Assembly: GCA_964486045.1 (NCBI GenBank)
Contig: CAZALK010000017.1
Coordinates: 32,001 to 96,000, forward strand
Reading direction: 5' to 3'
From: an uncultured archaeon
GTDB lineage: Archaea; Asgardarchaeota; Lokiarchaeia; Sigyniarchaeales; SOKP01
DNA length: 64,000 bases
A model generated the notes under the pieces. The model was not told where the DNA came from. It saw only the letters and a program-made list of their open reading frames with translations, and did no database searches. Positions 8,758 through 22,387 of this stretch are shown here, one piece after another. Within the stretch, counting starts at the first letter, position 1. Every line of letters begins with the position of its first letter. The translations under genes were made by a program, and so were the position numbers.

Positions 8758-9591
8758 ATGAAGAACATTGAAGGGGAATCTGAAGTCGTCAAAAAATCCA
8801 ATAAACCAAACACAATTGATACTTTAAAACGTGATTTTAAAGCTCTTGGAATAAAACCAGGAGCTGTTATAATTATGCACAGCTCTCTAAGTAAGTTAGG
8901 TTGGACGGTTGGTGGCCCAGTTTCTGTAATTCGCGCTATAATGGAGGTTTTAACAAAGAAAGGAACTTTAATTATGCCTGCGTTTACTTCGGGAAACAGT
9001 GAACCATCAGCGTGGGAAAATCCTCCTGTACCCAAGGATTGGTGGCCAATAATCCGCGAAAATACGCCTGCTTTTAATCCAATTATATCTCCTACGAGAA
9101 AGATGGGTATAATTGTAGAGACTTTTCGTACCTTTCCAAAAATTTATCGTAGTAACCATCCTTTATCTTCATTTGCAGCATGGGGGAAAGAAGCTAAAAA
9201 TATAACAAAAAATCATACACTTGAGTCAGATTTAGGTGAAAGTTCTCCCCTCGCAAGAATCTATGACTTAGATGGTCAAATCTTATTACTAGGTGTTATT
9301 CACTCAAATAATTCTTCACTACACCTCGCAGAATACCGAAGTAATTACTACGGTAAAAAATACCAACCTACAGGCTCAGCAATAATGAAAAATGGGAAGA
9401 GAAAATGGGTAGTATGGAAGGAATTAGATCTTAATCCTGATGATTTTGAAGAAATTGGTCAGGATTTCGAGACATTAAATCAATACAAACCTAAGAAAGT
9501 AGGATTAGCTGATGCACGTTTATTATCCCAACGAGAATTGATTGACTTTGCTATAAATTGGATTAAGAAAAATAGAGTTGAAGAAAAATGA
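8758..9591 (+). CDS. Aminoglycoside N(3)-acetyltransferase family (YokD-like) protein
   Basis: HSSLSKLGW.VGG, MGIIVETFR, RSNHPLSSFAAWG, NSSLHLAEYR. Confidence 0.9.
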   Translation: MKNIEGESEVVKKSNKPNTIDTLKRDFKALGIKPGAVIIMHSSLSKLGWTVGGPVSVIRAIMEVLTKKGTLIMPAFTSGNSEPSAWENPPVPKDWWPIIRENTPAFNPIISPTRKMGIIVETFRTFPKIYRSNHPLSSFAAWGKEAKNITKNHTLESDLGESSPLARIYDLDGQILLLGVIHSNNSSLHLAEYRSNYYGKKYQPTGSAIMKNGKRKWVVWKELDLNPDDFEEIGQDFETLNQYKPKKVGLADARLLSQRELIDFAINWIKKNRVEEK

Positions 9592-9718
9592 AATAAAGTA
9601 TAGGAGTTTCCGAATAGATACTTTACTCTATGATTGAGCCTAGCAAATCCTTTACCTTTGAAAGAATTAAGAAAAAGTAAGAAAACTAGAATAAGATATA
9701 AATAAGAATATTCTTTTG

Positions 9719-9727
9719 TTTTTATAA
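9719..9727 (+). promoter_or_regulatory. Putative TATA box of the trp leader/operon
   Basis: TTTTTATAA centred about 26 nt upstream of ATG 9750. An alternative TATAAATA lies at 9698-9705. Confidence 0.5.
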
Positions 9728-9749
9728 CTAAAAATATATGATTTTAAAT

Positions 9750-9800
9750 ATGGCAACTGTAAAATCTTCTGCTTGGCGTTGGCAGTGGCCTTGGCGTTAG
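9750..9800 (+). CDS. Putative trp operon leader peptide MATVKSSAWRWQWPWR (alternative in-frame start 9738 adds MILN)
   Basis: ATG GCA ACT GTA AAA TCT TCT GCT TGG CGT TGG CAG TGG CCT TGG CGT TAG: four TGG codons, about 160 nt upstream of trpD, same strand. Confidence 0.85.
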   Translation: MATVKSSAWRWQWPWR

Positions 9801-9840
9801 ATAACGTCCTTTCATTGGTTTAGATCATATCGATATCTCT

Positions 9841-9929
9841 CGTTTTTATTATTTTTGTTAAAACTTAACAAAAAGTTATTTTGCTTTCTTTACTGTGCGT
9901 TTTTATTATTGACACCCAATTATGAAACG
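9841..9929 (+). terminator. Candidate attenuator/terminator: U-tracts, perfect 10-bp inverted repeat, 13-nt direct repeat
   Basis: TTTTTGTTAA-AAC-TTAACAAAAA (9852-9874) followed by a T-rich run; CGTTTTTATTATT at 9841-9853 and 9898-9910. Confidence 0.5.
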
Positions 9930-9961
9930 AAACACAAAAAAAGAGTAAAACATGGAGTAGT

Positions 9962-11032
9962 TTGTTTAAAATGTCAGAAGCACATGAAAAAATAATTGAT
10001 GCAATAAAAAAAATATCTCAAAATGAAAGTCTATCAACTACGGAAGCAGAAGATGTTATGAGTGAGATAATGTCTGGAAAGGCAAAAGATTCTCAATTAG
10101 GTGCCTTATTAACTGCTTTAGTAATGAAGGGTGAAACAATTGAAGAAATTACGGGTTTTGCAAGAATAATGCGAGAATTCGCAAATGTTATTAAACCAAG
10201 TGTCGACAGTGAATTATTAGACACTTGTGGGACTGGGGGAGATAAAATAAAAACCTTTAACATAAGTACCATTTCAGCTTTAGTAGTAGCAGGAGCTGGT
10301 GTTTCTGTAGCAAAACATGGGAACCGAGCCGTGACTAGTAAATGTGGAAGTGCTGACTTATTAGAAGGATTAGGTGTAAAGATAGATTTACCACCTGAGG
10401 ATGTTAAGAATTGTATTGAGAAAATAGGATTAGGATTTATGTTTGCTCCTCTTTTTCATCCTGCAATGAAGTATGTAATGCCAACTAGAAGAGCTCTAAA
10501 GATAAGAACTGTATTCAATATACTAGGACCTTTAACTAATCCTGCTAATGCTAAATATCATGTGTTAGGTGTATTTCGTAAGGATTTGGCACCCGTTATG
10601 GCAAAAGTATTACAAGATCTAGGAGCAAAGCATGTTTATACGATACATAACTCTTGCGGTATTGATGAATTAGCGCCAGTGGGAATAAATTATATAACTG
10701 AATCGTATAATGGAAATATGGAAACCTATGCAATTACTAATAAAGATTTTAAAATCCCAGATTGCTCCGTAAATGATTTACTAGCAGGAAATCTTGATGA
10801 TAATATTAGAATTGCTTTAAAAATATTAAAAAAACCAGATTTTAAAGCTAAGTATAATACAATTCTGATGAATGTAGCTTTAGCGTTAAAATGTGGGGGC
10901 ATTGCGACTGACTTTGAAGAAGGTATATCAATCGCTAAAAACACGATAGAGTCAGGTAAAGCTTTCGAAAAGCTTGAAAGTTTCATTGAAATTACTGGTG
11001 GGAATAATAATAAATTGAAGAGTTATTTATAG
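9962..11032 (+). CDS. trpD: Anthranilate phosphoribosyltransferase (start may be ATG 9971)
   Basis: DTCGTGGD, FNIST, KHGNRAVTSKCGSAD, RTVFNILGPLTNPA. Confidence 0.97.
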   Translation: MFKMSEAHEKIIDAIKKISQNESLSTTEAEDVMSEIMSGKAKDSQLGALLTALVMKGETIEEITGFARIMREFANVIKPSVDSELLDTCGTGGDKIKTFNISTISALVVAGAGVSVAKHGNRAVTSKCGSADLLEGLGVKIDLPPEDVKNCIEKIGLGFMFAPLFHPAMKYVMPTRRALKIRTVFNILGPLTNPANAKYHVLGVFRKDLAPVMAKVLQDLGAKHVYTIHNSCGIDELAPVGINYITESYNGNMETYAITNKDFKIPDCSVNDLLAGNLDDNIRIALKILKKPDFKAKYNTILMNVALALKCGGIATDFEEGISIAKNTIESGKAFEKLESFIEITGGNNNKLKSYL

Positions 11033-11047
11033 GCTTGGAAATAAAAA

Positions 11048-11845
11048 ATGATCTCCAATAAAATTATCGAGATAGTTGAAAAACGGAAAAATTCCATTGA
11101 AAAAGACTTGATTTTTATGGAATCTATAAAAGGTAAAAGTCTTAGGGATAATCGAAAATCTTTAAGCGAAACCATCAAAAATAATTCCGAAACATCAATA
11201 ATATCAGAAATTAAGCTATCTTCACCTACTTTGGGAGATATTCGAAAATCTTTTAATATAAAATCAATAGCGATGGAAATGGAGAGTTCGGGGGTGATTG
11301 GATTGAGCGTTTTAACCGAACCTAATTATTTTAATGGATCATATGAAAATCTAAGGTTAGCTGTATTGAATACAAAATTACCTTGTTTAATGAAAGATTT
11401 TGTTGTTACTCCTATTCAATTCAAGATCGCTGCACAGATTGGAGCAACTAATATTCTTTTAATTAACTCAATTTGTAATATTAAGGAGATGTATAAGTTA
11501 GCTATTGATCATGATCTAGAACCTGTAATAGAAATTCATGCAGTGGAAGAAATAATCGATATTAGAGAATTATTTGATATGGGCTACGAACCTAAACTGA
11601 TTGGAGTTAATAATCGAAACCTGAAGACCTTGAATATTAATTTGAGGATCTCAAAAGAGATTATACCAAAATTAAAGGAAGAATTTGGAGAAAAAACCCA
11701 AATCATCTGTGAAAGTGGGATAAATTCTATTGAAGATATTAATTTTATAAAACCTACAGGTGCTAATGCTTTTCTAATAGGGTCATCAATCATGCAATCT
11801 AACAATATTAAGAAAAAAATTTTAGAATTACGTGGGGTAAATTGA
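11048..11845 (+). CDS. trpC: Indole-3-glycerol phosphate synthase
   Basis: IISEIKLSSPT, LSVLTEPNYFNGS, KDFVV, GVNNRNL, ESGI. Confidence 0.95.
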   Translation: MISNKIIEIVEKRKNSIEKDLIFMESIKGKSLRDNRKSLSETIKNNSETSIISEIKLSSPTLGDIRKSFNIKSIAMEMESSGVIGLSVLTEPNYFNGSYENLRLAVLNTKLPCLMKDFVVTPIQFKIAAQIGATNILLINSICNIKEMYKLAIDHDLEPVIEIHAVEEIIDIRELFDMGYEPKLIGVNNRNLKTLNINLRISKEIIPKLKEEFGEKTQIICESGINSIEDINFIKPTGANAFLIGSSIMQSNNIKKKILELRGVN

Positions 11846-12498
11846 TTGAATACGTAAAAATCTGTGGGTTAAAGAAGTACGAACATGTGCTACTTTGCAT
11901 AGAAAATGGTGCAGATGCGGTAGGATTTATATATGATGTTCCTGAATCTCCGAGAAACTTACAAAATATGGAGTTAAAGGCTCTTTTAAAAAAAATAAAA
12001 AATAAAATTTCAACTGTAATTGTGCTTAAACCATCGAGTATTCATGAATTAGAAGAAATAATTGATGATTTCGATGCATCCTATTTTCAAATTCATATTA
12101 ATTTTGATGAAAATGAGTTAGAAAAACTCTCATTAGAGCATAAAAGGAAAGTGATCCTCGCACTAAAAGTTAATCAAGCAAATAAAGATTCAACAATGAA
12201 GCTGATAAATAATCTAAATAATAAGGTTTTCGCATTTCTTATTGACAATAGTGAGGGTCAAGGTAATGAATTAGATTTTGAAATTGTTAAGAAAATTATA
12301 AGACAAAACTCTGATAAAAGGATAATAGTTGCTGGGGGAATCAGCATTGAAAATGTTGGAGAAGTAATAGATGTGTTAAAACCCTACGGAATTGATATAA
12401 GTAGCTCTTTAGAATTTGAGGTAGGTGTTAAGGATCCTAATAGGATTAAATTTATTTTAACTAAAATTAATAATTTAAAAAAAAATTTGAGTGATTAG
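11842..12498 (+). CDS. trpF: Phosphoribosylanthranilate isomerase
   Basis: [36 protein letters not shown]. Confidence 0.93.
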
Positions 12499-12503
12499 AA
12501 ATA

Positions 12504-13706
12504 ATGGACTACATTGGAAACTATCCAAATGAATTAGGAAAGTTTGGGGAATTTGGTGGTATGTTTGCCCCTGAAATTTTAATGCCTGCACTTACTGAAC
12601 TCACTGAAGCCTTCAATAGATATGGAAGAGATAAAGATTTTCAAGAGGAATTTGAGACAATTCTAAGAGACTATAGTGGAAGACCAACACCTTTATATTA
12701 CGCCTTAAGATTAAGTGAAGATATGGGTTGTAAGGTTTATTTAAAACGGGAGGATTTAAATCATGGTGGTGCACACAAGATTAATAATGTTATGGGGCAA
12801 GCACTCCTAGCAAAGAAAATGGGAAAATCGAAACTCATAGCAGAAACAGGAGCAGGGCAACATGGATTTGCAACGGCAATAGCAGGTGCATATTTTGGAA
12901 TGGAGACCAAAGTATTTATGGGTGAAATAGATATTAAAAGGCAAGCCTACAATGTTTATAGAATGCAACTGCTTGGAGCTGAAGTGGTTCCTGTCAAGTC
13001 TGGTTCAAGAACGTTAAAGGATGCCGTAAATGAGGGTCTTAGGTATTGGATCGCCAATGTGGAAGATACACATTATTTATTGGGGAGTGTAGTAGGTCCT
13101 CATCCTTACCCCTTGATGGTACGAGAATTTCAGAGAGTCATTGGTAAAGAAACTAGAATACAAATTATAGAACATGAGGGGAAATTACCTTCAGCCATTA
13201 TTGCTTGCATTGGTGGGGGAAGTAATGCCATTGGTATAATGTTTGATTTCATTAATGACAATAATGTTCAATTAATAGGTGTTGAAGCTGCAGGAGAAGG
13301 AAAACACACTGAGAAACATTCAATGGCTTTGGGTTTGGGACGTAAGGGTGTACTTCATGGATCATTGATGTATCTACTACAGAATGAATACGGAAACATC
13401 TTAGAAACACACTCAATAAGCGCGGGGTTAGATTATCCTGGAGTCGGTCCAGAACACTGCTATCTGAAAGATGTAAATAGATTAAGAGTTGGAGAAGCTA
13501 CAGATAAAGAGACTCTTGAAGCTTTTAGAAAATTAAGCTTGAAAGAAGGTATTATTCCTGCTCTCGAAAGCTCTCATGCTCTTGCATATTTAGATAAAAT
13601 AAAAGATGAATTTAAGGAAGACGATATCATTGTGGTTAATTTATCGGGAAGCGGTTCGAAAGATTTGGATATAATTAAAAAACATATGGAGTTCAAAACG
13701 CAATGA
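12504..13706 (+). CDS. trpB: Tryptophan synthase beta chain (TrpB1 type)
   Basis: [55 protein letters not shown]. Confidence 0.98.
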
Positions 13707-14533
13707 ATGGTCCAAATAGGCTTCAAAAATTATTTAATGGCAATAAACATAAAGACGAAAAGTTTTTCATGCCATTTTTAGTTGCAGGGGATCCAGATAT
13801 TCATCAATTCAAGAAACTTGCTGAAAAAATAGAACCATTTGCAGATATTCTTGAAATTGGAATTCCTTTTAGTGACCCAATTGCTGATGGTCCAACTATC
13901 CAGGAAGCAAATATTAGAGCATTTAGCTCAGGGATTAATACGCATATAGCTATTGAAGCTATAGCCGATCTAAGAGGGATTACAGAAAAACCTATAGTCA
14001 TTTTAACATATTACAATATCTTAATACAAGGAGCCGATTCTTTAGAGAAATCATTGGATAACACAATCAAAAAGTTAAAAGAAAGCGGTGTTGACGGGAT
14101 TGTTATTGGAGATCTCCCGATTGAGGAAGCTGACCTGACTTTAGAAGCTTGTGAGAAATATGACGTTTTCCTTATCTTTTTAGTAGCTCCATCTACAACT
14201 GAAGATAGGTTAAAAAAAATATTAAAGGTAGCAAAAGGCTTTATATATTTAATATCAGTAATGGGAGTAACTGGGGAGAGAGATGCAGTTTCCCAAATTA
14301 CAAAAGATTTAATCAATAATGTGAAGCAAAAAACTGACAAATTACTCCCAATTTTCGTCGGATTCGGTATTTCTAAACCCGAGCATGCTAAAATAATTGT
14401 GGATGCTGGAGCAGATGGTATCATTATTGGTTCTGCGATTGTAAACATAATTAAGAAAAACATAAACAATTCAAAAAAATTAGAGCAAGAGATAGTGGAA
14501 TTTGCTTCAAGTATTAAAAAAGCTATTAATTAA
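13703..14533 (+). CDS. trpA: Tryptophan synthase alpha chain
   Basis: [41 protein letters not shown]. Confidence 0.97.
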
Positions 14534-14562
14534 GACTAAATTATTGAATAGAGAGGAGAAAA

Positions 14563-16059
14563 ATGGATTTTGATATACATATAGAAAAGATTGGAGAATT
14601 AGATAACATTTTTACATTTTATAAGTATTTAGTTAAAAGATATGACCTGAAAAAACATGCTTTATTAGAATCTACATCAGCAAATACCAGAGAAACTCTC
14701 TACAGCTTTATAGCTATGGAACCTGATTTTATGTTGGAGGTTAACGGTGAGAATTTTAAGATTTATGATATAACTACAGAGAGAGGAGAAGTTATTAAAG
14801 AGTATGTTGAATCTAAAGATCCTTCACAAGAACGACCATATAATCCATTACCATTTAAGGACAATGTTAAATATAACATGGTAGCCCTTGACACTCTGAG
14901 TTCTCTTACACCATATTCTACTTTACCCTTTACAGAGCTATTTCCAAGAAATATTTTTTATGGTGGAATGCTTGGTTATATTGGATATGATGTAGTTGCT
15001 CCATATGTTGGGTATAAATCCTCTAGTGAATTTCCCGACATTCTTATGGCGCTCTTTACCAAAGTATTGGTATATTCACATAGCTCGAATGCATTATTTA
15101 TGATTGATAACAGCATTGATGATTATTCAAAAGACAAAGATATCAGATATCAGTTAAGCCTCTTTAAAAAACATGGCACTCCAGATGATTGTAAAGAAAT
15201 TTCAATGGATATTGACGAAATTGATGAATCTGGTTTTAGATCAAATACGTCTAAATCGGCCCATGGTAGAATGATTGAAAAAACTAAAGAACATATTTAT
15301 AATGGGGATATAATACAAGCTGTCATTTCTCGAAGATTGTATACTGAGAGTAAGGTTGACCCAATGGTAATTTATGAAGTACTCAGAGTCCTTAATCCGT
15401 CGCAGTATATGTATAACATCAATTTTAATGATGTGAAGATAATTGGAAGTAGCCCAGAAGCGTTAATTTCTAAGAATAAGGATGTTTTGAGCACGGTACC
15501 GATTGCAGGAACTATTCGGAGAGGCAAAACACAAAAAGAAGACTTGGAACTGGAAAGAGAGTTGCTTGATGATCCTAAGGAGCAAGCGGAACACATTATG
15601 CTGGTTGATTTAGCCCGAAATGATCTCGCAAAAGTTTCATACCCCGGAACTGTTGATACCTATGAGTTAATGACCATTCAGAAATATCAGAAAGTTCAAC
15701 ATATAGTAAGTAAAGTCCAGAGCAAGACTCCTCTAGATGGGTATCAAGTTTTAAAGAGTATTTTTCCTGCGGGAACGCTCTCTGGCGCGCCCAAACTGAG
15801 AGCAATGCAAATAATTCAAGAATTAGAGACAGAATCGAGGGGACCATATGGGGGAGGTGTAGGATATTTTAGTTTCAATGGTGATATGGCGTTTGCAATA
15901 GCGATCAGAACGATGTTTGGGAGAAATGGAACATATTTTGCTCAAGCTGGTGGGGGTATTGTATCAGATAGTCAACCAGATGATGAATTCCGGGAGACTC
16001 ACAACAAATTGTATAGTGTATTAAAATCAATCAAAATAGCGGAGGCAAGAGAGAATTGA
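14563..16059 (+). CDS. trpE: Anthranilate synthase component I
   Basis: LLES, NPSQYM, PIAGTIRRG, AEHIMLVDLARND, FPAGTLSGAPKLRAM; operon context. Confidence 0.95.
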   Translation: MDFDIHIEKIGELDNIFTFYKYLVKRYDLKKHALLESTSANTRETLYSFIAMEPDFMLEVNGENFKIYDITTERGEVIKEYVESKDPSQERPYNPLPFKDNVKYNMVALDTLSSLTPYSTLPFTELFPRNIFYGGMLGYIGYDVVAPYVGYKSSSEFPDILMALFTKVLVYSHSSNALFMIDNSIDDYSKDKDIRYQLSLFKKHGTPDDCKEISMDIDEIDESGFRSNTSKSAHGRMIEKTKEHIYNGDIIQAVISRRLYTESKVDPMVIYEVLRVLNPSQYMYNINFNDVKIIGSSPEALISKNKDVLSTVPIAGTIRRGKTQKEDLELERELLDDPKEQAEHIMLVDLARNDLAKVSYPGTVDTYELMTIQKYQKVQHIVSKVQSKTPLDGYQVLKSIFPAGTLSGAPKLRAMQIIQELETESRGPYGGGVGYFSFNGDMAFAIAIRTMFGRNGTYFAQAGGGIVSDSQPDDEFRETHNKLYSVLKSIKIAEAREN

Positions 16060-16685
16060 ATATATTATTTATTAACAATTATGATAGTTTTGTTTATAAT
16101 TTGGTGAATTATATATGCCAATTAGAATCAGACTCTAATATTATCGTTGAGGACCATAATATAACTATTGATAAAGTAAGAAGTTTAAACCCCAATAAAA
16201 TTATTATTTCACCCGGACCAGGCCATCCTAAATATGAAACCGGTAATGTAATTCCGATAATTAAGGAGTTCTGCGATAAAATACCAATTCTAGGGATATG
16301 TTTAGGACATCAGACAATAATTGAATCATTTGGAGAAGATCAAGATTTAGAATATGTAGGACTAGCGAAAGTAGGTCCAATGCACGGAAAACAATCAAAT
16401 ATATTCCATGACCAAAAAACGATCTTCAAAGATATTCCAAATCCACTACAAGTTATTAGATATCATTCACTGGCTGCCAAAGAGAGTACACTCCCTCAAG
16501 ATCTTAAGATTACGGCTACTGCGGATGACGGAACAATCATAGCAGTTAGACACAAACAATACCCCGTTGAAGGAGTTCAATTTCATCCCGAATCGATAAA
16601 AATGAAGCCCCATGGAATGCAAATATTGAAAAATTTCTTAGAAATTTCCTCGAATAAAGACATTAGAAATCAGAATTTATCATAA
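16056..16685 (+). CDS. trpG: Anthranilate synthase component II (glutamine amidotransferase)
   Basis: NYDSFVYNL, ISPGPGHP, GICLGHQ, RYHSL, GVQFHPES. Confidence 0.95.
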   Translation: MNILFINNYDSFVYNLVNYICQLESDSNIIVEDHNITIDKVRSLNPNKIIISPGPGHPKYETGNVIPIIKEFCDKIPILGICLGHQTIIESFGEDQDLEYVGLAKVGPMHGKQSNIFHDQKTIFKDIPNPLQVIRYHSLAAKESTLPQDLKITATADDGTIIAVRHKQYPVEGVQFHPESIKMKPHGMQILKNFLEISSNKDIRNQNLS

Positions 16686-16726: not shown

Positions 16727-17938
16727 ATGGCTGAATTAAGGTACTTCTTTGCTTATGAACTGGAAGATACAGGGGAACGGAAAGAAATTTTTTTCTCTGA
16801 GAAGGATTTAGCACAGTATCTTTATCCAGAGCAAGTCTTAGTGCTAGTTCGAGAAGATTTAAGGAGAATCTTCATCTGGAAAGGCGCCAAATCACCGATA
16901 AACAAGAGATTTATAAGTTCTAGAATAGCTCGAGATTTGCAACAAGATTTAATGAAGGATGCTCGTTATCATCGATGTAAAATTGTATCTGTTGACCAAG
17001 GAGATGAAATTCAAGAATTTCTTGATATTTTTAACCTAAAATCAATGGAAGTTAAAGAAAGATTAGCGGACATGAGATATGTACTTAATAGGGATAAAGA
17101 GGTGATTGAAAAAAAGGTAGTATACCCAGAAAAGAAAGAATATAGGATTAATAAACATCTAACGCTAAAATTAATAGAGGGACAAACTGAAATTTATATT
17201 GATGAGAAACCCTTTCATCAATGCAAATATCTCCTACTTAATCTCACTCAAAAAGATTTTGCTAAGTTTGATCACATTGACTCAATTGATGAAGCGTTTG
17301 AGATATATAACAAGATGGATAAAAATCATGAAGGAGATCATGATCTAATTGATCCTGAATCTGAATTTATTGGTCATTGCTCTAATCTCCAAGCATGGTA
17401 TGAACATGACTATAATCTAAGAATTCTGCACAGCAGCTTGTCCATCCCCTTACTCAAAAAAATGGCGTTCTTAGGAGATAAAAAGGCCATTATTAAATTA
17501 AAAGAAAGCATTGCAACTAGGATTGCATCAAGACATTATAATACCATTATTTTTTACTTGAATGAAAAATACCTTAGATTATTTTCAAACGAGGAATTGG
17601 AAGTAATGTTTGAAGATTGGCTTGACAAAAACGTTGAATTCGCTTTCATGGAGAAAAGAAGGTTATGGTATCCTCTTCTTAAAGAATTGATTGATAGGGG
17701 AATTACCAGGGCACAGAAAATCATTAAAAAAGAAATCGTTTTATATCTAATAGAAGACAATTTTGAGGCCTATCGATATTTATTGAATAGTGATTTTATC
17801 AAGCTCATTAACTTAGAAGATCTTGAGGAAGTCTATGAACTAATTCCAAAAAAAGATATGGTTGCATTAAGACGAATTGAAAATCTAATTCTCAAAGCCA
17901 CACTTAAAGAGAGAAGAAATTTAAAAGAAGAAAATTGA
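16727..17938 (+). CDS. Gelsolin-like domain fused to a Lokiarchaeia-type C/H-motif domain and a helical region
   Basis: VLVLVREDLRRIFIWKGAKS...VDQGDEIQEF is gelsolin-repeat-like; then QCKYLLL...SIDEA...EFIGHCSNLQAW. Confidence 0.65.
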   Translation: MAELRYFFAYELEDTGERKEIFFSEKDLAQYLYPEQVLVLVREDLRRIFIWKGAKSPINKRFISSRIARDLQQDLMKDARYHRCKIVSVDQGDEIQEFLDIFNLKSMEVKERLADMRYVLNRDKEVIEKKVVYPEKKEYRINKHLTLKLIEGQTEIYIDEKPFHQCKYLLLNLTQKDFAKFDHIDSIDEAFEIYNKMDKNHEGDHDLIDPESEFIGHCSNLQAWYEHDYNLRILHSSLSIPLLKKMAFLGDKKAIIKLKESIATRIASRHYNTIIFYLNEKYLRLFSNEELEVMFEDWLDKNVEFAFMEKRRLWYPLLKELIDRGITRAQKIIKKEIVLYLIEDNFEAYRYLLNSDFIKLINLEDLEEVYELIPKKDMVALRRIENLILKATLKERRNLKEEN

Positions 17939-21346: not shown

Positions 21347-22387
21347 TCATAAAGTAGCATAAAATTTCTTATAATAATATAATTCCTCTTTAGGTATTTC
21401 TCGATAACCTAAGGAAGTCATCATTCCATAAACAATTGCTAAGGTCATTCCCGTTACAGCAGGTACTCGGGGCGTAGAAAAATCAGTTCGAAGCATTAGA
21501 AAAGAGTTAATATTTTTTAATACATATCTAGTCTCAGGTCTCTCCTTATATAGACGTATAATTTCTTCCCGGAATTGTTTCATAAAAGATTTGTGTTCTA
21601 TTAATAATTCTTTGATATTTCTTCTTCCAGTCACAAATCCAAAATGTCCAAAACCTGCGTTTAAAGGAACTACCTCAATGAGTTTATCAAGTGTTTCCAT
21701 ATATTTTTCATGATTATAATATATTGGCATGGATGTCGGCATAGTTAATAATTTTGTTTCATGATAAATACTACCAGCGGATTCACCATATTGAATAAAA
21801 TCGATATCTCCATCTTTTATTAAAACGGGACATTGATGATCAGGAGTGTGTCCTGGAGTTTTAAATATGGCTAATTTAACTTCAGAACCATGGATGTGAA
21901 ATCGATCGATAATTTCGAGATTTTCGGCTTTATTATTAAAATTATCAATAGGTTCTATAATTTTAAAGGCTTTATCACTAATGGGTTTCATTTCACCAAC
22001 CAGGTCACCGTATGTTCTCATCCCACGCTGTAAATGAAGTTTAAAGTCATTTAACAATTCCTTTGTAATTTTATTTGTAAGAATTTTCGCATCTTTGTTA
22101 TATTTCTTAATTTTCTCATAGAGTTTGAAAATTCCACCAGCATGATCGAAGTGATGGTGAGTTGGGATGATATATTTAAACGATGAGAGTGGAATATTAT
22201 TTTTTTTTAAATATCTTAACCCATTTTTGATGTCTAATGATGATCCACAGTCTATCAATAGAGATCCATCATCAAATTCCCCGATAAAAACTGATATGGC
22301 TCTCTCGCGACCGTACGCCTTAACATCAATGTGATGAAGGTATTCATTTACTTTACCCGATTTAAGTGTTATTAAATCGTTTACCAT
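21347..22387 (-). CDS. Metallo-beta-lactamase fold hydrolase
   Basis: IDCG, THHHFDHAGG, TPGHTPDH, FGHFG. Confidence 0.9.
   Translation of the reverse strand: MVNDLITLKSGKVNEYLHHIDVKAYGRERAISVFIGEFDDGSLLIDCGSSLDIKNGLRYLKKNNIPLSSFKYIIPTHHHFDHAGGIFKLYEKIKKYNKDAKILTNKITKELLNDFKLHLQRGMRTYGDLVGEMKPISDKAFKIIEPIDNFNNKAENLEIIDRFHIHGSEVKLAIFKTPGHTPDHQCPVLIKDGDIDFIQYGESAGSIYHETKLLTMPTSMPIYYNHEKYMETLDKLIEVVPLNAGFGHFGFVTGRRNIKELLIEHKSFMKQFREEIIRLYKERPETRYVLKNINSFLMLRTDFSTPRVPAVTGMTLAIVYGMMTSLGYREIPKEELYYYKKFYATL

Follow-up and report, generated by a model that had tools for sequence, protein, structure and literature searches.

A short Trp-rich leader ORF was found in front of the trp operon of an Asgard archaeon, in a window of 64,000 nucleotides (the window, i.e., the whole stretch of DNA that was analysed). 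The leader ORF is likely to be a cis-acting leader peptide, through which the translating ribosome would sense charged tRNA-Trp. The following features were shown: a conserved Trp-rich ORF, translated as far as can be judged without an experiment, its exclusive link to trp genes, a hairpin at its end (hairpin 1:2), a U-rich tract behind it, and parallel leaders for Leu and Cys. The response itself and the control of the operon are inferred from this anatomy, with no transcript or ribosome data. Ribosome stalling, the direction in which control works, and an output by premature termination are all inferred as well.

Leader ORF, trp operon, and recurrence in the family

The leader ORF was located at 9750..9800 of the + strand, from the ATG at 9750 to the TAG at 9798-9800. 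It has 16 codons and encodes MATVKSSAWRWQWPWR before the stop. The TGG codons are at 9774, 9780, 9786, and 9792, i.e., in the strict order W-x-W-x-W-x-W. An in-frame ATG at 9738 gives a 20-codon form. The operon behind it, trpD-trpC-trpF-trpB-trpA-trpE-trpG, occupies 9971..16685 on the + strand and is the presumed target of control. The genes trpD (9971-11032), C, F, B, A, E, and G were all confirmed by Pfam, and trpB was assigned by NCBIfam. A Shine-Dalgarno (SD)-like GGAG of trpD was found at 9954..9957 (+ strand), with 13 nt to the ATG. It is complementary to the 3' end of the 16S rRNA (...GGAUCACCUCCU).

The initial annotation had described a Trp-rich uORF with four TGG codons in W-x-W-x-W-x-W ahead of the trpD operon. 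This claim held and the coordinates were confirmed. The distance to trpD had been given as about 160 nt, and the spacer from the end of the leader ORF to the trpD ATG (9971) was measured as 170 nt. The statement that no TrpY-like gene lies beside the operon held insofar as no adjoining regulator gene was found by Pfam on the neighbouring genes. The upstream neighbour of the operon is an Antibiotic_NAT-type acetyltransferase gene, and the gene after trpG encodes a protein with a weak gelsolin-repeat match. The genome comprises 5.18 Mb with 31% G+C, is 99% complete, and contains a full-length archaeal 16S rRNA. No record was found in an exact-protein look-up of the TrpD of the window. The small ORF at the leader position is absent from the gene calls in three public records.

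Trp takes four of the 16 codons of the leader ORF, versus 1.05% of codons genome-wide. When both strands of the 5.18 Mb genome are counted, the pattern (TGG N3)x3 TGG has only five distinct occurrences, two of which precede trp genes. Because of the rarity of this pattern and the low genome-wide use of Trp, the leader ORF is more than a chance occurrence. A second leader was recognized on another contig of the same genome by BLAST of the spacer against its own genome. It encodes MTLARNLLWCWQWPWRGDTALSLE before the stop and lies 133 nt before trpB2. The gene product was assigned by NCBIfam as the TrpB-like PLP enzyme TrpB2 (NF009057, 642 bits versus a cut-off of 366). The second copy and the recurrence across the family show that the Trp leader is not a chance ORF.

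The strict DNA pattern of the leader was found at 26 places in 24 of 134 family genomes. It had no match in 265 other genomes of the phylum, and the reversed control pattern gave none. The looser pattern, ATG-N21-(TGG N3)x3 TGG, occurs in 61 of 135 family genomes, and its reversed control had few matches. A covariance model of the Trp leader, built from 41 leaders, matched in 93 of 126 family genomes and in all 13 genera, and it did not match in any of 24 genomes from other families of the same class. With these 93 genomes, the comparative check suggested in the initial annotation, i.e., a search for short W-rich ORFs with synonymous variation before orthologous trp genes, was passed. In every intact copy inspected, either trpB2 (most copies) or the trpD operon was placed 130-450 nt downstream in the same orientation. 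The spacer between leader and gene is 130-260 nt, and reaches about 450 nt where an extra small ORF intervenes. A small unnamed ORF stands between leader and trpD in two genera. Several genomes, including that of the window, carry both copies, i.e., at the trpB2 and trpD loci.

Before the trpB2 homologs of another Asgard family (f16), no uORFs with at least two Trp were detected, except for a few that are likely ends of neighbouring genes. A broader pattern scan of contigs was uninformative because chance matches in GC-rich bacteria dominated it.

The leader ORF is conserved and probably translated; translation is inferred from sequence alone, without ribosome data. In-frame stops were found in none of 40 distinct N-terminal regions (start codon to first TGG), versus 21 of 40 in the +1 frame and 20 of 40 in the +2 frame. 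The first Trp is the ninth codon at all 26 strict-pattern places despite differing preceding sequence, and GTG replaces ATG at the same position in two lineages. The length from the ATG to the Trp block differs by 6 and 3 nt; two codons are missing in one subgroup, and a single copy carries an additional TGG. Because these indels are multiples of three, the reading frame is kept.

Trp codons are retained in nearly all copies. Their usual count is 4-6, and diverged or decayed copies have 2-3. The residues between them vary (R/C/S; Q/H/R/A; P/S/L/Q/H/T/A/F), and synonymous variation is present in the leaders (CGT/CGC/CGG, TGT/TGC, CCT/CCA/CCC/CCG, and CAG/CAA). In three copies, a 1-nt deletion alters the C-terminal tail and shifts the stop, and the element is nonetheless kept. 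Decayed copies were also found, i.e., one in which a TGG has become TAG and no start of a trp gene follows, and two with only two Trp codons. In one genus, no ATG is present in the Trp frame, and a TTG start would be required.

An arrest peptide was considered as an alternative. The nascent W-x-W-Q-W-P-W-R would be arrested in the tunnel, in the style of TnaC or the fungal arginine attenuator peptide, and it would sense free tryptophan and not uncharged tRNA. Arrest peptides typically contain Trp and Pro. Most copies retain Q and P between the Trp residues, and the stop often lies within 1-3 codons. However, the Q position changes to H, R, and A, and the P position to S, L, Q, H, T, A, and F, with Trp codons nearly always kept. 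The 1-nt deletion, with its altered tail and moved stop, is tolerated in three copies. Unless the logic were inverted, stalling at high Trp would mistime the induction of a biosynthetic gene, and the Leu and Cys leaders described below are plain codon runs. Because the non-Trp residues vary, the arrest peptide is disfavoured and regarded as unlikely.

Another alternative is a small Trp-rich peptide that has an independent function, e.g., membrane-active or signalling, and merely shares the trp locus. The conservation and probable translation of the ORF would agree with it. However, only the Trp codons are kept, and the N-terminus, the residues between Trp, and the C-terminal tail vary. At two unlinked loci, the ORF invariably precedes trp genes and points in their direction. 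A regulatory role agrees with the conserved non-coding structure that surrounds it and with the Leu and Cys parallels. This explanation is therefore very improbable.

Promoter and RNA structures of the leader

In the relatives, a BRE/TATA-like box, typically RTTAAsTTTTTAWA, peaks 50-65 nt before the uORF ATG. TATA-like matches were few at -35..-21, versus 44 in the bins from -65 to -51, and no conserved TATA was found at about -27 in the relatives. By homology, the preferred candidate for the TATA box of the window is ATATAAATA at 9696..9704 (+ strand), 46-54 nt before the uORF ATG; this assignment is inferred. The initial annotation had pointed to a TATA-like TTTTTATAA and inferred a leaderless uORF mRNA from it. 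This sequence is present at 9719..9727 (+ strand), centred 27 nt before the ATG, and would give such an mRNA, but the inference is doubtful, as the box of the relatives lies at -50 to -65. The 5' arm of helix P1, described below, sits between the conserved box and the ATG. Because the conserved box is so far upstream of the ATG and, in most groups, part of the 5' UTR pairs with sequence past the uORF, the mRNA is probably leadered. A 5' UTR of 25-35 nt is considered more likely than a leaderless start, although this rests on inference without TSS data.

Hairpin 1:2 was found at 9793..9808 (+ strand). Its arms are GGCGTT, i.e., the last Trp codon, the Arg codon, and the T of the stop, and AACGTC, with AGAT as the loop. 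The hairpin, in which the last Trp codons pair with the stop and the following bases, is present in 42 of the 43 leaders examined. The exception is the second copy of this genome, where GGCG/CGCC lies beyond the search window. The mean energy is -7.2 kcal/mol, versus -3.2 +/- 2.6 in shuffles. At least nine different complementary stem sequences were seen. The variants include GGCGUUG/UAACGCC, GCGCC/GGCGC, GCGCG/CGCGC, GGUCUUG/UAAGACC, GUUGGC/GCCAAC, AGUGGC/GCCACU, and GGUGUUU/AAACACU.

Helix P1 joins the two sides of the uORF. Its 5' arm, ATGATTTTAAAT, is at 9738..9749 (+ strand), just before the uORF start, and pairs with the 3' arm, TTTAGATCAT, at 9819..9828 (+ strand), with a duplex energy of -7.5 to -9.6 kcal/mol. 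Across the family, cognate arms have a mean of -8.6 versus -5.3 kcal/mol for non-cognate arms. By a second measure, the values are -10.2 versus -6.7 for shuffles. Swaps of A:U to G:C were noticed by eye (ATGATTT/AAATCAT versus ATGGTTT/AAACCAT). In most groups, the segment before or including the uORF AUG pairs with CAUUGG and the bases that follow. P1 is weak in the large WQWPW subgroup.

Motif b, CATTGG, is located at 9813..9818 (+ strand) and hardly varies across the alignments. In 20 of 42 leaders, the CAU of this motif is paired with the AUG of the uORF. Complementarity between motif b and the distal-hairpin loop, UCCAAU, holds for 86% of cells, and two compensatory changes were counted on the alignment. 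The covariation between motif b and the distal loop is weak and not significant. By eye, two or three further changes, compensated or tolerated, were noticed, i.e., G:C to A:U, U:A to C:G, and G:C to U:A in leaders L031, L054, and L034, respectively.

The U-rich, G-poor tract follows at 9840..9894 (+ strand). It contains T5 at 9843-9847 and 9852-9856, a variable A/U hairpin, TTTTTGTTAA/TTAACAAAAA, at 9852-9874 (+ strand), and a T-rich stretch after it. Upstream regions and gene 3' flanks of this genome were used as controls. Of 43 leaders, 84% have a T run of at least 5 at 20-80 nt past the stop; this share is 31% in the upstream controls and 48% in the gene 3' flanks. T accounts for a fraction of 0.49 in the leaders, versus 0.36 and 0.40 in these controls, respectively.

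The distal hairpin, GTGCGTTTTTATTATTG-ACACC-CAATTATGAAACGAAACAC, was predicted by RNAalifold at 9895..9935 (+ strand), with CCAAT (9916-9920) at the loop. In the covariation analysis, 29 cells changed on both sides, versus 10.1 +/- 2.5 in shuffles (0/500), and slid controls were far lower. The genome has two copies of this hairpin, solely at the two Trp leaders, whose sequences differ while each keeps its own complementarity. The distance to the gene ATG is near-constant at 53-69 nt. A third small hairpin, CACAU/AUGUG, lies ahead of the SD in many lineages, and in one subgroup CACAU is able to pair with AUGUGGU at the SD. A duplicated 13-mer (9841 and 9898) was tried as an alternative partner of the distal 3' strand and was rejected; the cognate value was -5.18 versus -5.12 for the non-cognate, and the pairing is not conserved.

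The core of the leader, TGGCAGTGGCCTTGGCG, is almost invariant, synonymous sites included, and it uses minor codons. CGT makes up 11% of the Arg codons and CAG 21% of the Gln codons in the genome, and both are almost fixed in the leader. This shows that, besides coding, a constraint works at the nucleotide level, most simply RNA pairing. In the downstream helices, G·U and A·C mismatches are nearly equal in number (21 versus 17). Therefore, a role of these helices as plus-strand RNA, and not as DNA palindromes, cannot be proved.

These observations bear on a further alternative, in which the UGG repeats or the palindromes are protein sites, i.e., for a TRAP-like RNA binder or a Trp-responsive DNA-binding factor, and the open frame is secondary. 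The near-fixed core with its minor codons would support this explanation. The UGG repeats with 3-nt spacers resemble the triplet repeats of TRAP, and the distal element is a long imperfect palindrome with G·U and A·C equally common. However, the frame evidence speaks against it (no in-frame stop in 40 regions versus about 20 in the other frames, ATG to GTG exchange, and indels in multiples of three). TRAP (MtrB, PF02081) was not found in the 99% complete genome by a search whose positive control detects B. subtilis TRAP. The distal element occurs solely at the two leaders, in differing copies that are each self-complementary, and the Leu and Cys leaders share the same coding logic. Protein sites are thus an unlikely explanation.

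Leaders for other amino acids and the proposed mechanism

Leaders with cognate codons were found in other pathways. At 30 of 30 loci in 10 genera, leuA is preceded by a uORF whose last codons form a Leu run (e.g., ...LLLSLLDLLLLLLL before the stop). These Leu uORFs lie 82-132 nt upstream of leuA, and a large GC-containing hairpin begins right past the stop. When a stalled ribosome was modelled, the SD access of the Leu leaders rose from 0.43 to 0.54, with 13 of 29 leaders up and one down.

In a crude scan of the own genome, long ORFs preceded by a short ORF enriched in a single residue were sought. For Trp, only the two Trp leaders were returned. For Cys, MRINYEHKVRTSTSTCCCMCCCC (followed by its stop) was found 85 nt before a cysteine-synthase-like gene. 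A sole ortholog of this gene was found in 60 other family genomes, and it has MRFRQQNQPNSYFCNCCRDCCC, also ending at a stop, at the same place. In both Cys leaders, the Cys codons pair with bases past the stop. A paralog of the cysteine-synthase-like gene inside an operon has no Cys-rich uORF. Both the Leu and the Cys leaders are plain codon runs. The Leu and Cys parallels are the strongest argument for the ribosome as the sensor, and this argument is an inference from sequence. No His-rich uORF was found before hisG.

A family-wide CCCxCCC pattern was tried as a marker of Cys leaders and rejected, as nearly all matches fell inside a protein of about 365 aa and not in leaders. As a side observation, a weak candidate for an Arg-rich uORF was noticed at argJ.

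The initial annotation had proposed that the uORF senses Trp-tRNA charging and controls trpDCFBAEG, and that the check should be repeated for other pathways with their cognate codons. The first proposal is supported by the comparative anatomy, as an inference without transcript or ribosome data. The second check was passed for Leu (30/30 leuA) and Cys and failed for His.

In the proposed mechanism, the speed of the ribosome on the alternating Trp codons would report how much charged tRNA-Trp is available. With ample Trp, the ribosome would reach the stop and depart, and hairpin 1:2 would form. In most lineages, P1 would close too, between the uORF start region and the segment behind 1:2. A closed and compact leader domain would then stand directly before the U-rich, G-poor tract, and few transcripts would reach trpD or trpB2, or the message would be inactive. 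With scarce Trp, the ribosome would stall on UGG, 1:2 and the domain would stay open, and transcription, or the use of the downstream message, would continue.

Archaeal RNA polymerase and aCPSF1/FttA terminate at U-rich, G-poor sequence of this kind, and intrinsic termination in archaea is not known to need a hairpin. For this reason, the route from leader folding to termination is unclear. No conserved pairing of the 2:3 antiterminator type was detected between the segment after the stop and the downstream sequence (-9.6 versus -9.8 in shuffles, with scattered targets). Further points against the model are the weak P1 of the WQWPW subgroup, the genus without an ATG in the Trp frame, the almost fixed minor codons, the near-equal G·U and A·C counts, and the SD/AUG access of the Trp leaders, which a modelled stalled ribosome does not alter.

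The same sensing by the ribosome may have a different output, i.e., the translation initiation of trpD and trpB2 or the stability of the mRNA, through remodelled downstream hairpins. This alternative invokes the central, distal, and third (CACAU/AUGUG) hairpins and the contact of CAUUGG with the loop. In its favour, only 1:2 is better supported than the distal hairpin, which keeps its near-constant distance to the gene ATG, and CACAU/AUGUGGU pairing at the SD is possible in one subgroup. Motif b and the distal loop are 86% complementary with some compensatory changes, and the modelled SD access of the Leu leaders goes up on stalling. It also needs no hairpin-dependent terminator, which is not a known archaeal feature. 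However, in the Trp leaders, folding constrained by a stalled ribosome left the SD/AUG access of the trp gene unchanged (0.42 versus 0.42). The covariation of motif b with the loop is weak, no conserved anti-SD element was found, and the strong U-rich tract is left unexplained. As a whole, this alternative, sensing included, is regarded as less likely than not.

Premature termination before the trp genes is part of the preferred model. If the ribosome is accepted as the sensor, however, termination has about even odds with control of translation or stability by the conserved downstream hairpins.

A bolder reading may be considered, in which leaders with cognate codons (Trp, Leu, Cys, and perhaps others) are a general control of amino-acid biosynthesis in this Asgard family. 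As part of the same joint claim, they would use a non-bacterial expression platform, i.e., U-tract/factor-dependent termination or hairpin relays, without a GC-rich terminator. The evidence leans modestly towards this reading.

If the mechanism is true, archaea too would use the ribosome as a sensor of amino acids, and attenuation would be archaeal as well as bacterial. It would also mean that, in close relatives of the eukaryotes, transcription and translation are tightly coupled in function. Leader-peptide attenuation is the textbook proof of such coupling in bacteria. Since archaeal termination proceeds via U tracts and aCPSF1/FttA, and not by hairpin terminators, the relay of the signal likely differs. 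It could show in what way termination or initiation in archaea responds to RNA structure or to the position of the ribosome. The leader offers concrete and mutable elements for testing coupling in the prokaryotes closest to eukaryotes. It also flags unannotated small ORFs that are overlooked by gene callers.

Comparison with known systems

In the open-access literature searched, no account of ribosome-mediated attenuation or of leader peptides with cognate codons was found for archaea; a report in a subscription journal is not excluded. To our knowledge, leader-peptide attenuation is not established outside bacteria. Archaeal uORFs are poorly characterised (Gelsinger et al., PMC7261190). In the Rfam search of the window leader, with E up to 10, no leader, T-box, or riboswitch family was recognized, including Trp_leader, and only sub-threshold chance matches appeared. 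The sole match overlapping the leader is sub-threshold, on the opposite strand, and due to chance. The leaders of five relatives gave nothing at the gathering score of Rfam.

The known tryptophan control of trp genes in archaea is TrpY of Methanothermobacter, a DNA-binding protein that acts at promoter operators. TrpY control has no leader ORF, whereas the Asgard trp operon has a leader ORF and no adjoining regulator gene.

The enterobacterial trpL and the Asgard leader share a short ORF with Trp codons near its end, upstream of co-oriented trp genes. In both, the regulatory codons and the stop pair with the next segment (1:2), and U-rich sequence lies downstream. The resemblance concerns the sensing half of trpL, and such an arrangement is the signature of the amino-acid sensors that bacteria base on the ribosome. 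However, the Trp codons alternate in the Asgard leader and are adjacent in trpL. Neither a 2:3 antiterminator nor a GC-rich 3:4 terminator was found in the Asgard leader. Its spacer is much longer, with three further hairpins, and the archaeal termination machinery differs.

The TRAP RNA of B. subtilis also has regularly spaced triplet repeats in a trp leader. It carries 9-11 GAG/UAG repeats, whereas the Asgard leader carries 4-6 UGG repeats in a conserved open frame. Because a TRAP gene is missing from the genome and the frame that holds the repeats is conserved, the leader is not TRAP-like.

In the pyrBI attenuation of E. coli, a closely following ribosome blocks the terminator, and UTP is sensed via pausing of RNA polymerase. 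The preferred Asgard model resembles it in having no antiterminator, and the presence of the ribosome would keep the closing helices (1:2 and P1) open before the U tract. The two differ in the signal, i.e., UTP for pyrBI and, as proposed, tRNA charging for the Asgard leader, and hairpin-dependent termination is only hypothetical in the latter.

In the translational attenuation of ermC and cat, a stalled ribosome in a short leader ORF remodels the downstream RNA, as it would in the Asgard leader. The ermC/cat leaders free a sequestered SD, whereas the modelled SD access is unchanged in the Trp leaders. The Leu leaders of the family are closer to the ermC/cat type than the Trp leaders are.

Polycysteine leaderless uORF attenuators have been described in mycobacteria (bioRxiv 10.1101/834739), and the Cys-rich uORF of this genome follows the same logic. 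The mycobacterial attenuators are bacterial and leaderless, whereas the Asgard elements are archaeal and the Trp leader is probably leadered.

Leu, Cys and Arg codons in uORFs of the own genome

Short uORFs rich in a single amino acid were found ahead of genes other than those for tryptophan, among them a Leu-rich uORF before leuA. In the genome from which the window was taken, this uORF (contig C34, about 9111-9235, minus strand; L264) ends in SVLELHLLLL followed by two stop codons, 83 nt upstream of leuA. A uORF with 5-8 terminal Leu codons was present at all 30 leuA loci (30/30; 10 genera, the relatives being L267-L295). Directly 3' of these uORFs, at the 30 loci of the 10 genera, lies a large hairpin that covaries and has CCUC/GAGG-like arms.

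A poly-Cys uORF, i.e., MRINYEHKVRTSTSTCCCMCCCC and a stop codon, was located in the own genome on the minus strand of contig C25 (32080-32151; L086:1381-1452), 85 nt upstream of a gene for a cysteine-synthase-like PLP enzyme. The orthologue of this gene in another genus (L088, genome G147) is preceded by the uORF MRFRQQNQPNSYFCNCCRDCCC, also closed by a stop codon. In both uORFs, the Cys codons are paired with bases 3' of the stop. In the own-genome leader, ATTAATTCTCAACT, 3' of the Cys-codon hairpin, pairs with the uORF start region.

The uORF MNEIVGIQFQNAPHKLRPSRRGF, terminated by a stop codon, was found on the minus strand of contig C14 (L265), where it precedes argJ, with its ATG at 22180, by about 125 nt. 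Three of its final seven codons, AGA, CGC and CGC, encode Arg. As a putative Arg leader it is a weak candidate.

Repeat and genes around the Trp leaders

The window's leader contains an exact 13-nt direct repeat, CGTTTTTATTATT, with one copy within the U-rich tract (9841-9853) and the other (9898-9910) making up the distal hairpin's 5' strand. In the window, the two copies could conceivably swap as partners of 9916-9932. Such a partner switch was not conserved across the family.

Two genera have an additional small ORF as the first operon gene, sandwiched between the Trp leader and trpD. That of G161 (L263:349-591) encodes 80 aa and showed no Pfam or NCBIfam match; L004 and L005 likewise have one. 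At the other end of the window's operon, a gene for a 403-aa protein (16727-17938, plus strand) lies 41 nt past trpG on the same strand. This protein gave a weak gelsolin-repeat match in Pfam (E = 3.5e-4), which narrowly missed the cut-off.

Separately, a CCCxCCC motif (TGY x3, N3, TGY x3) was conserved within a protein family whose members are about 360-375 aa long (L056-L084, family genomes). The pattern was present in 84/135 family genomes, a figure that takes in other hits besides this protein.

Additional and altered Trp leaders

An extra, decayed copy, MAIDKVFT-stop-PWPWRWQ-stop, was found in G201 (C96:3840-4380; L257), where TAG replaces the first Trp codon. It is not followed by a trpB2 start; all that lies behind it is a short, weak match to the TrpB2 end.

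In genus g2 (L243-L246), the Trp frame, ending in NCSWRWQWAWRWCR and a stop codon, lacks an ATG; 14 codons upstream there is a TTG. The +2 frame is opened by an ATG made of A and the TG of the first Trp codon, giving MALAVGLALVSISLLALVFP before a stop. These leaders possibly represent a switched reading frame or a leader in decay.

The second Trp leader of the own genome, MTLARNLLWCWQWPWRGDTALSLE with its stop codon, lies on the plus strand of contig C1 (674420-674494; L002:1477-1551), and trpB2 begins 133 nt 3' of it. Relative to most relatives, its frame is shifted past WPWR by a 1-nt deletion; therefore, the ORF runs on across hairpin 1:2, i.e., the last Trp codons paired with the usual stop region, and the CATTGG motif. 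The deletion with read-through was also found in two relatives, whose stop is the TAG within a CATAGG variant of that motif.
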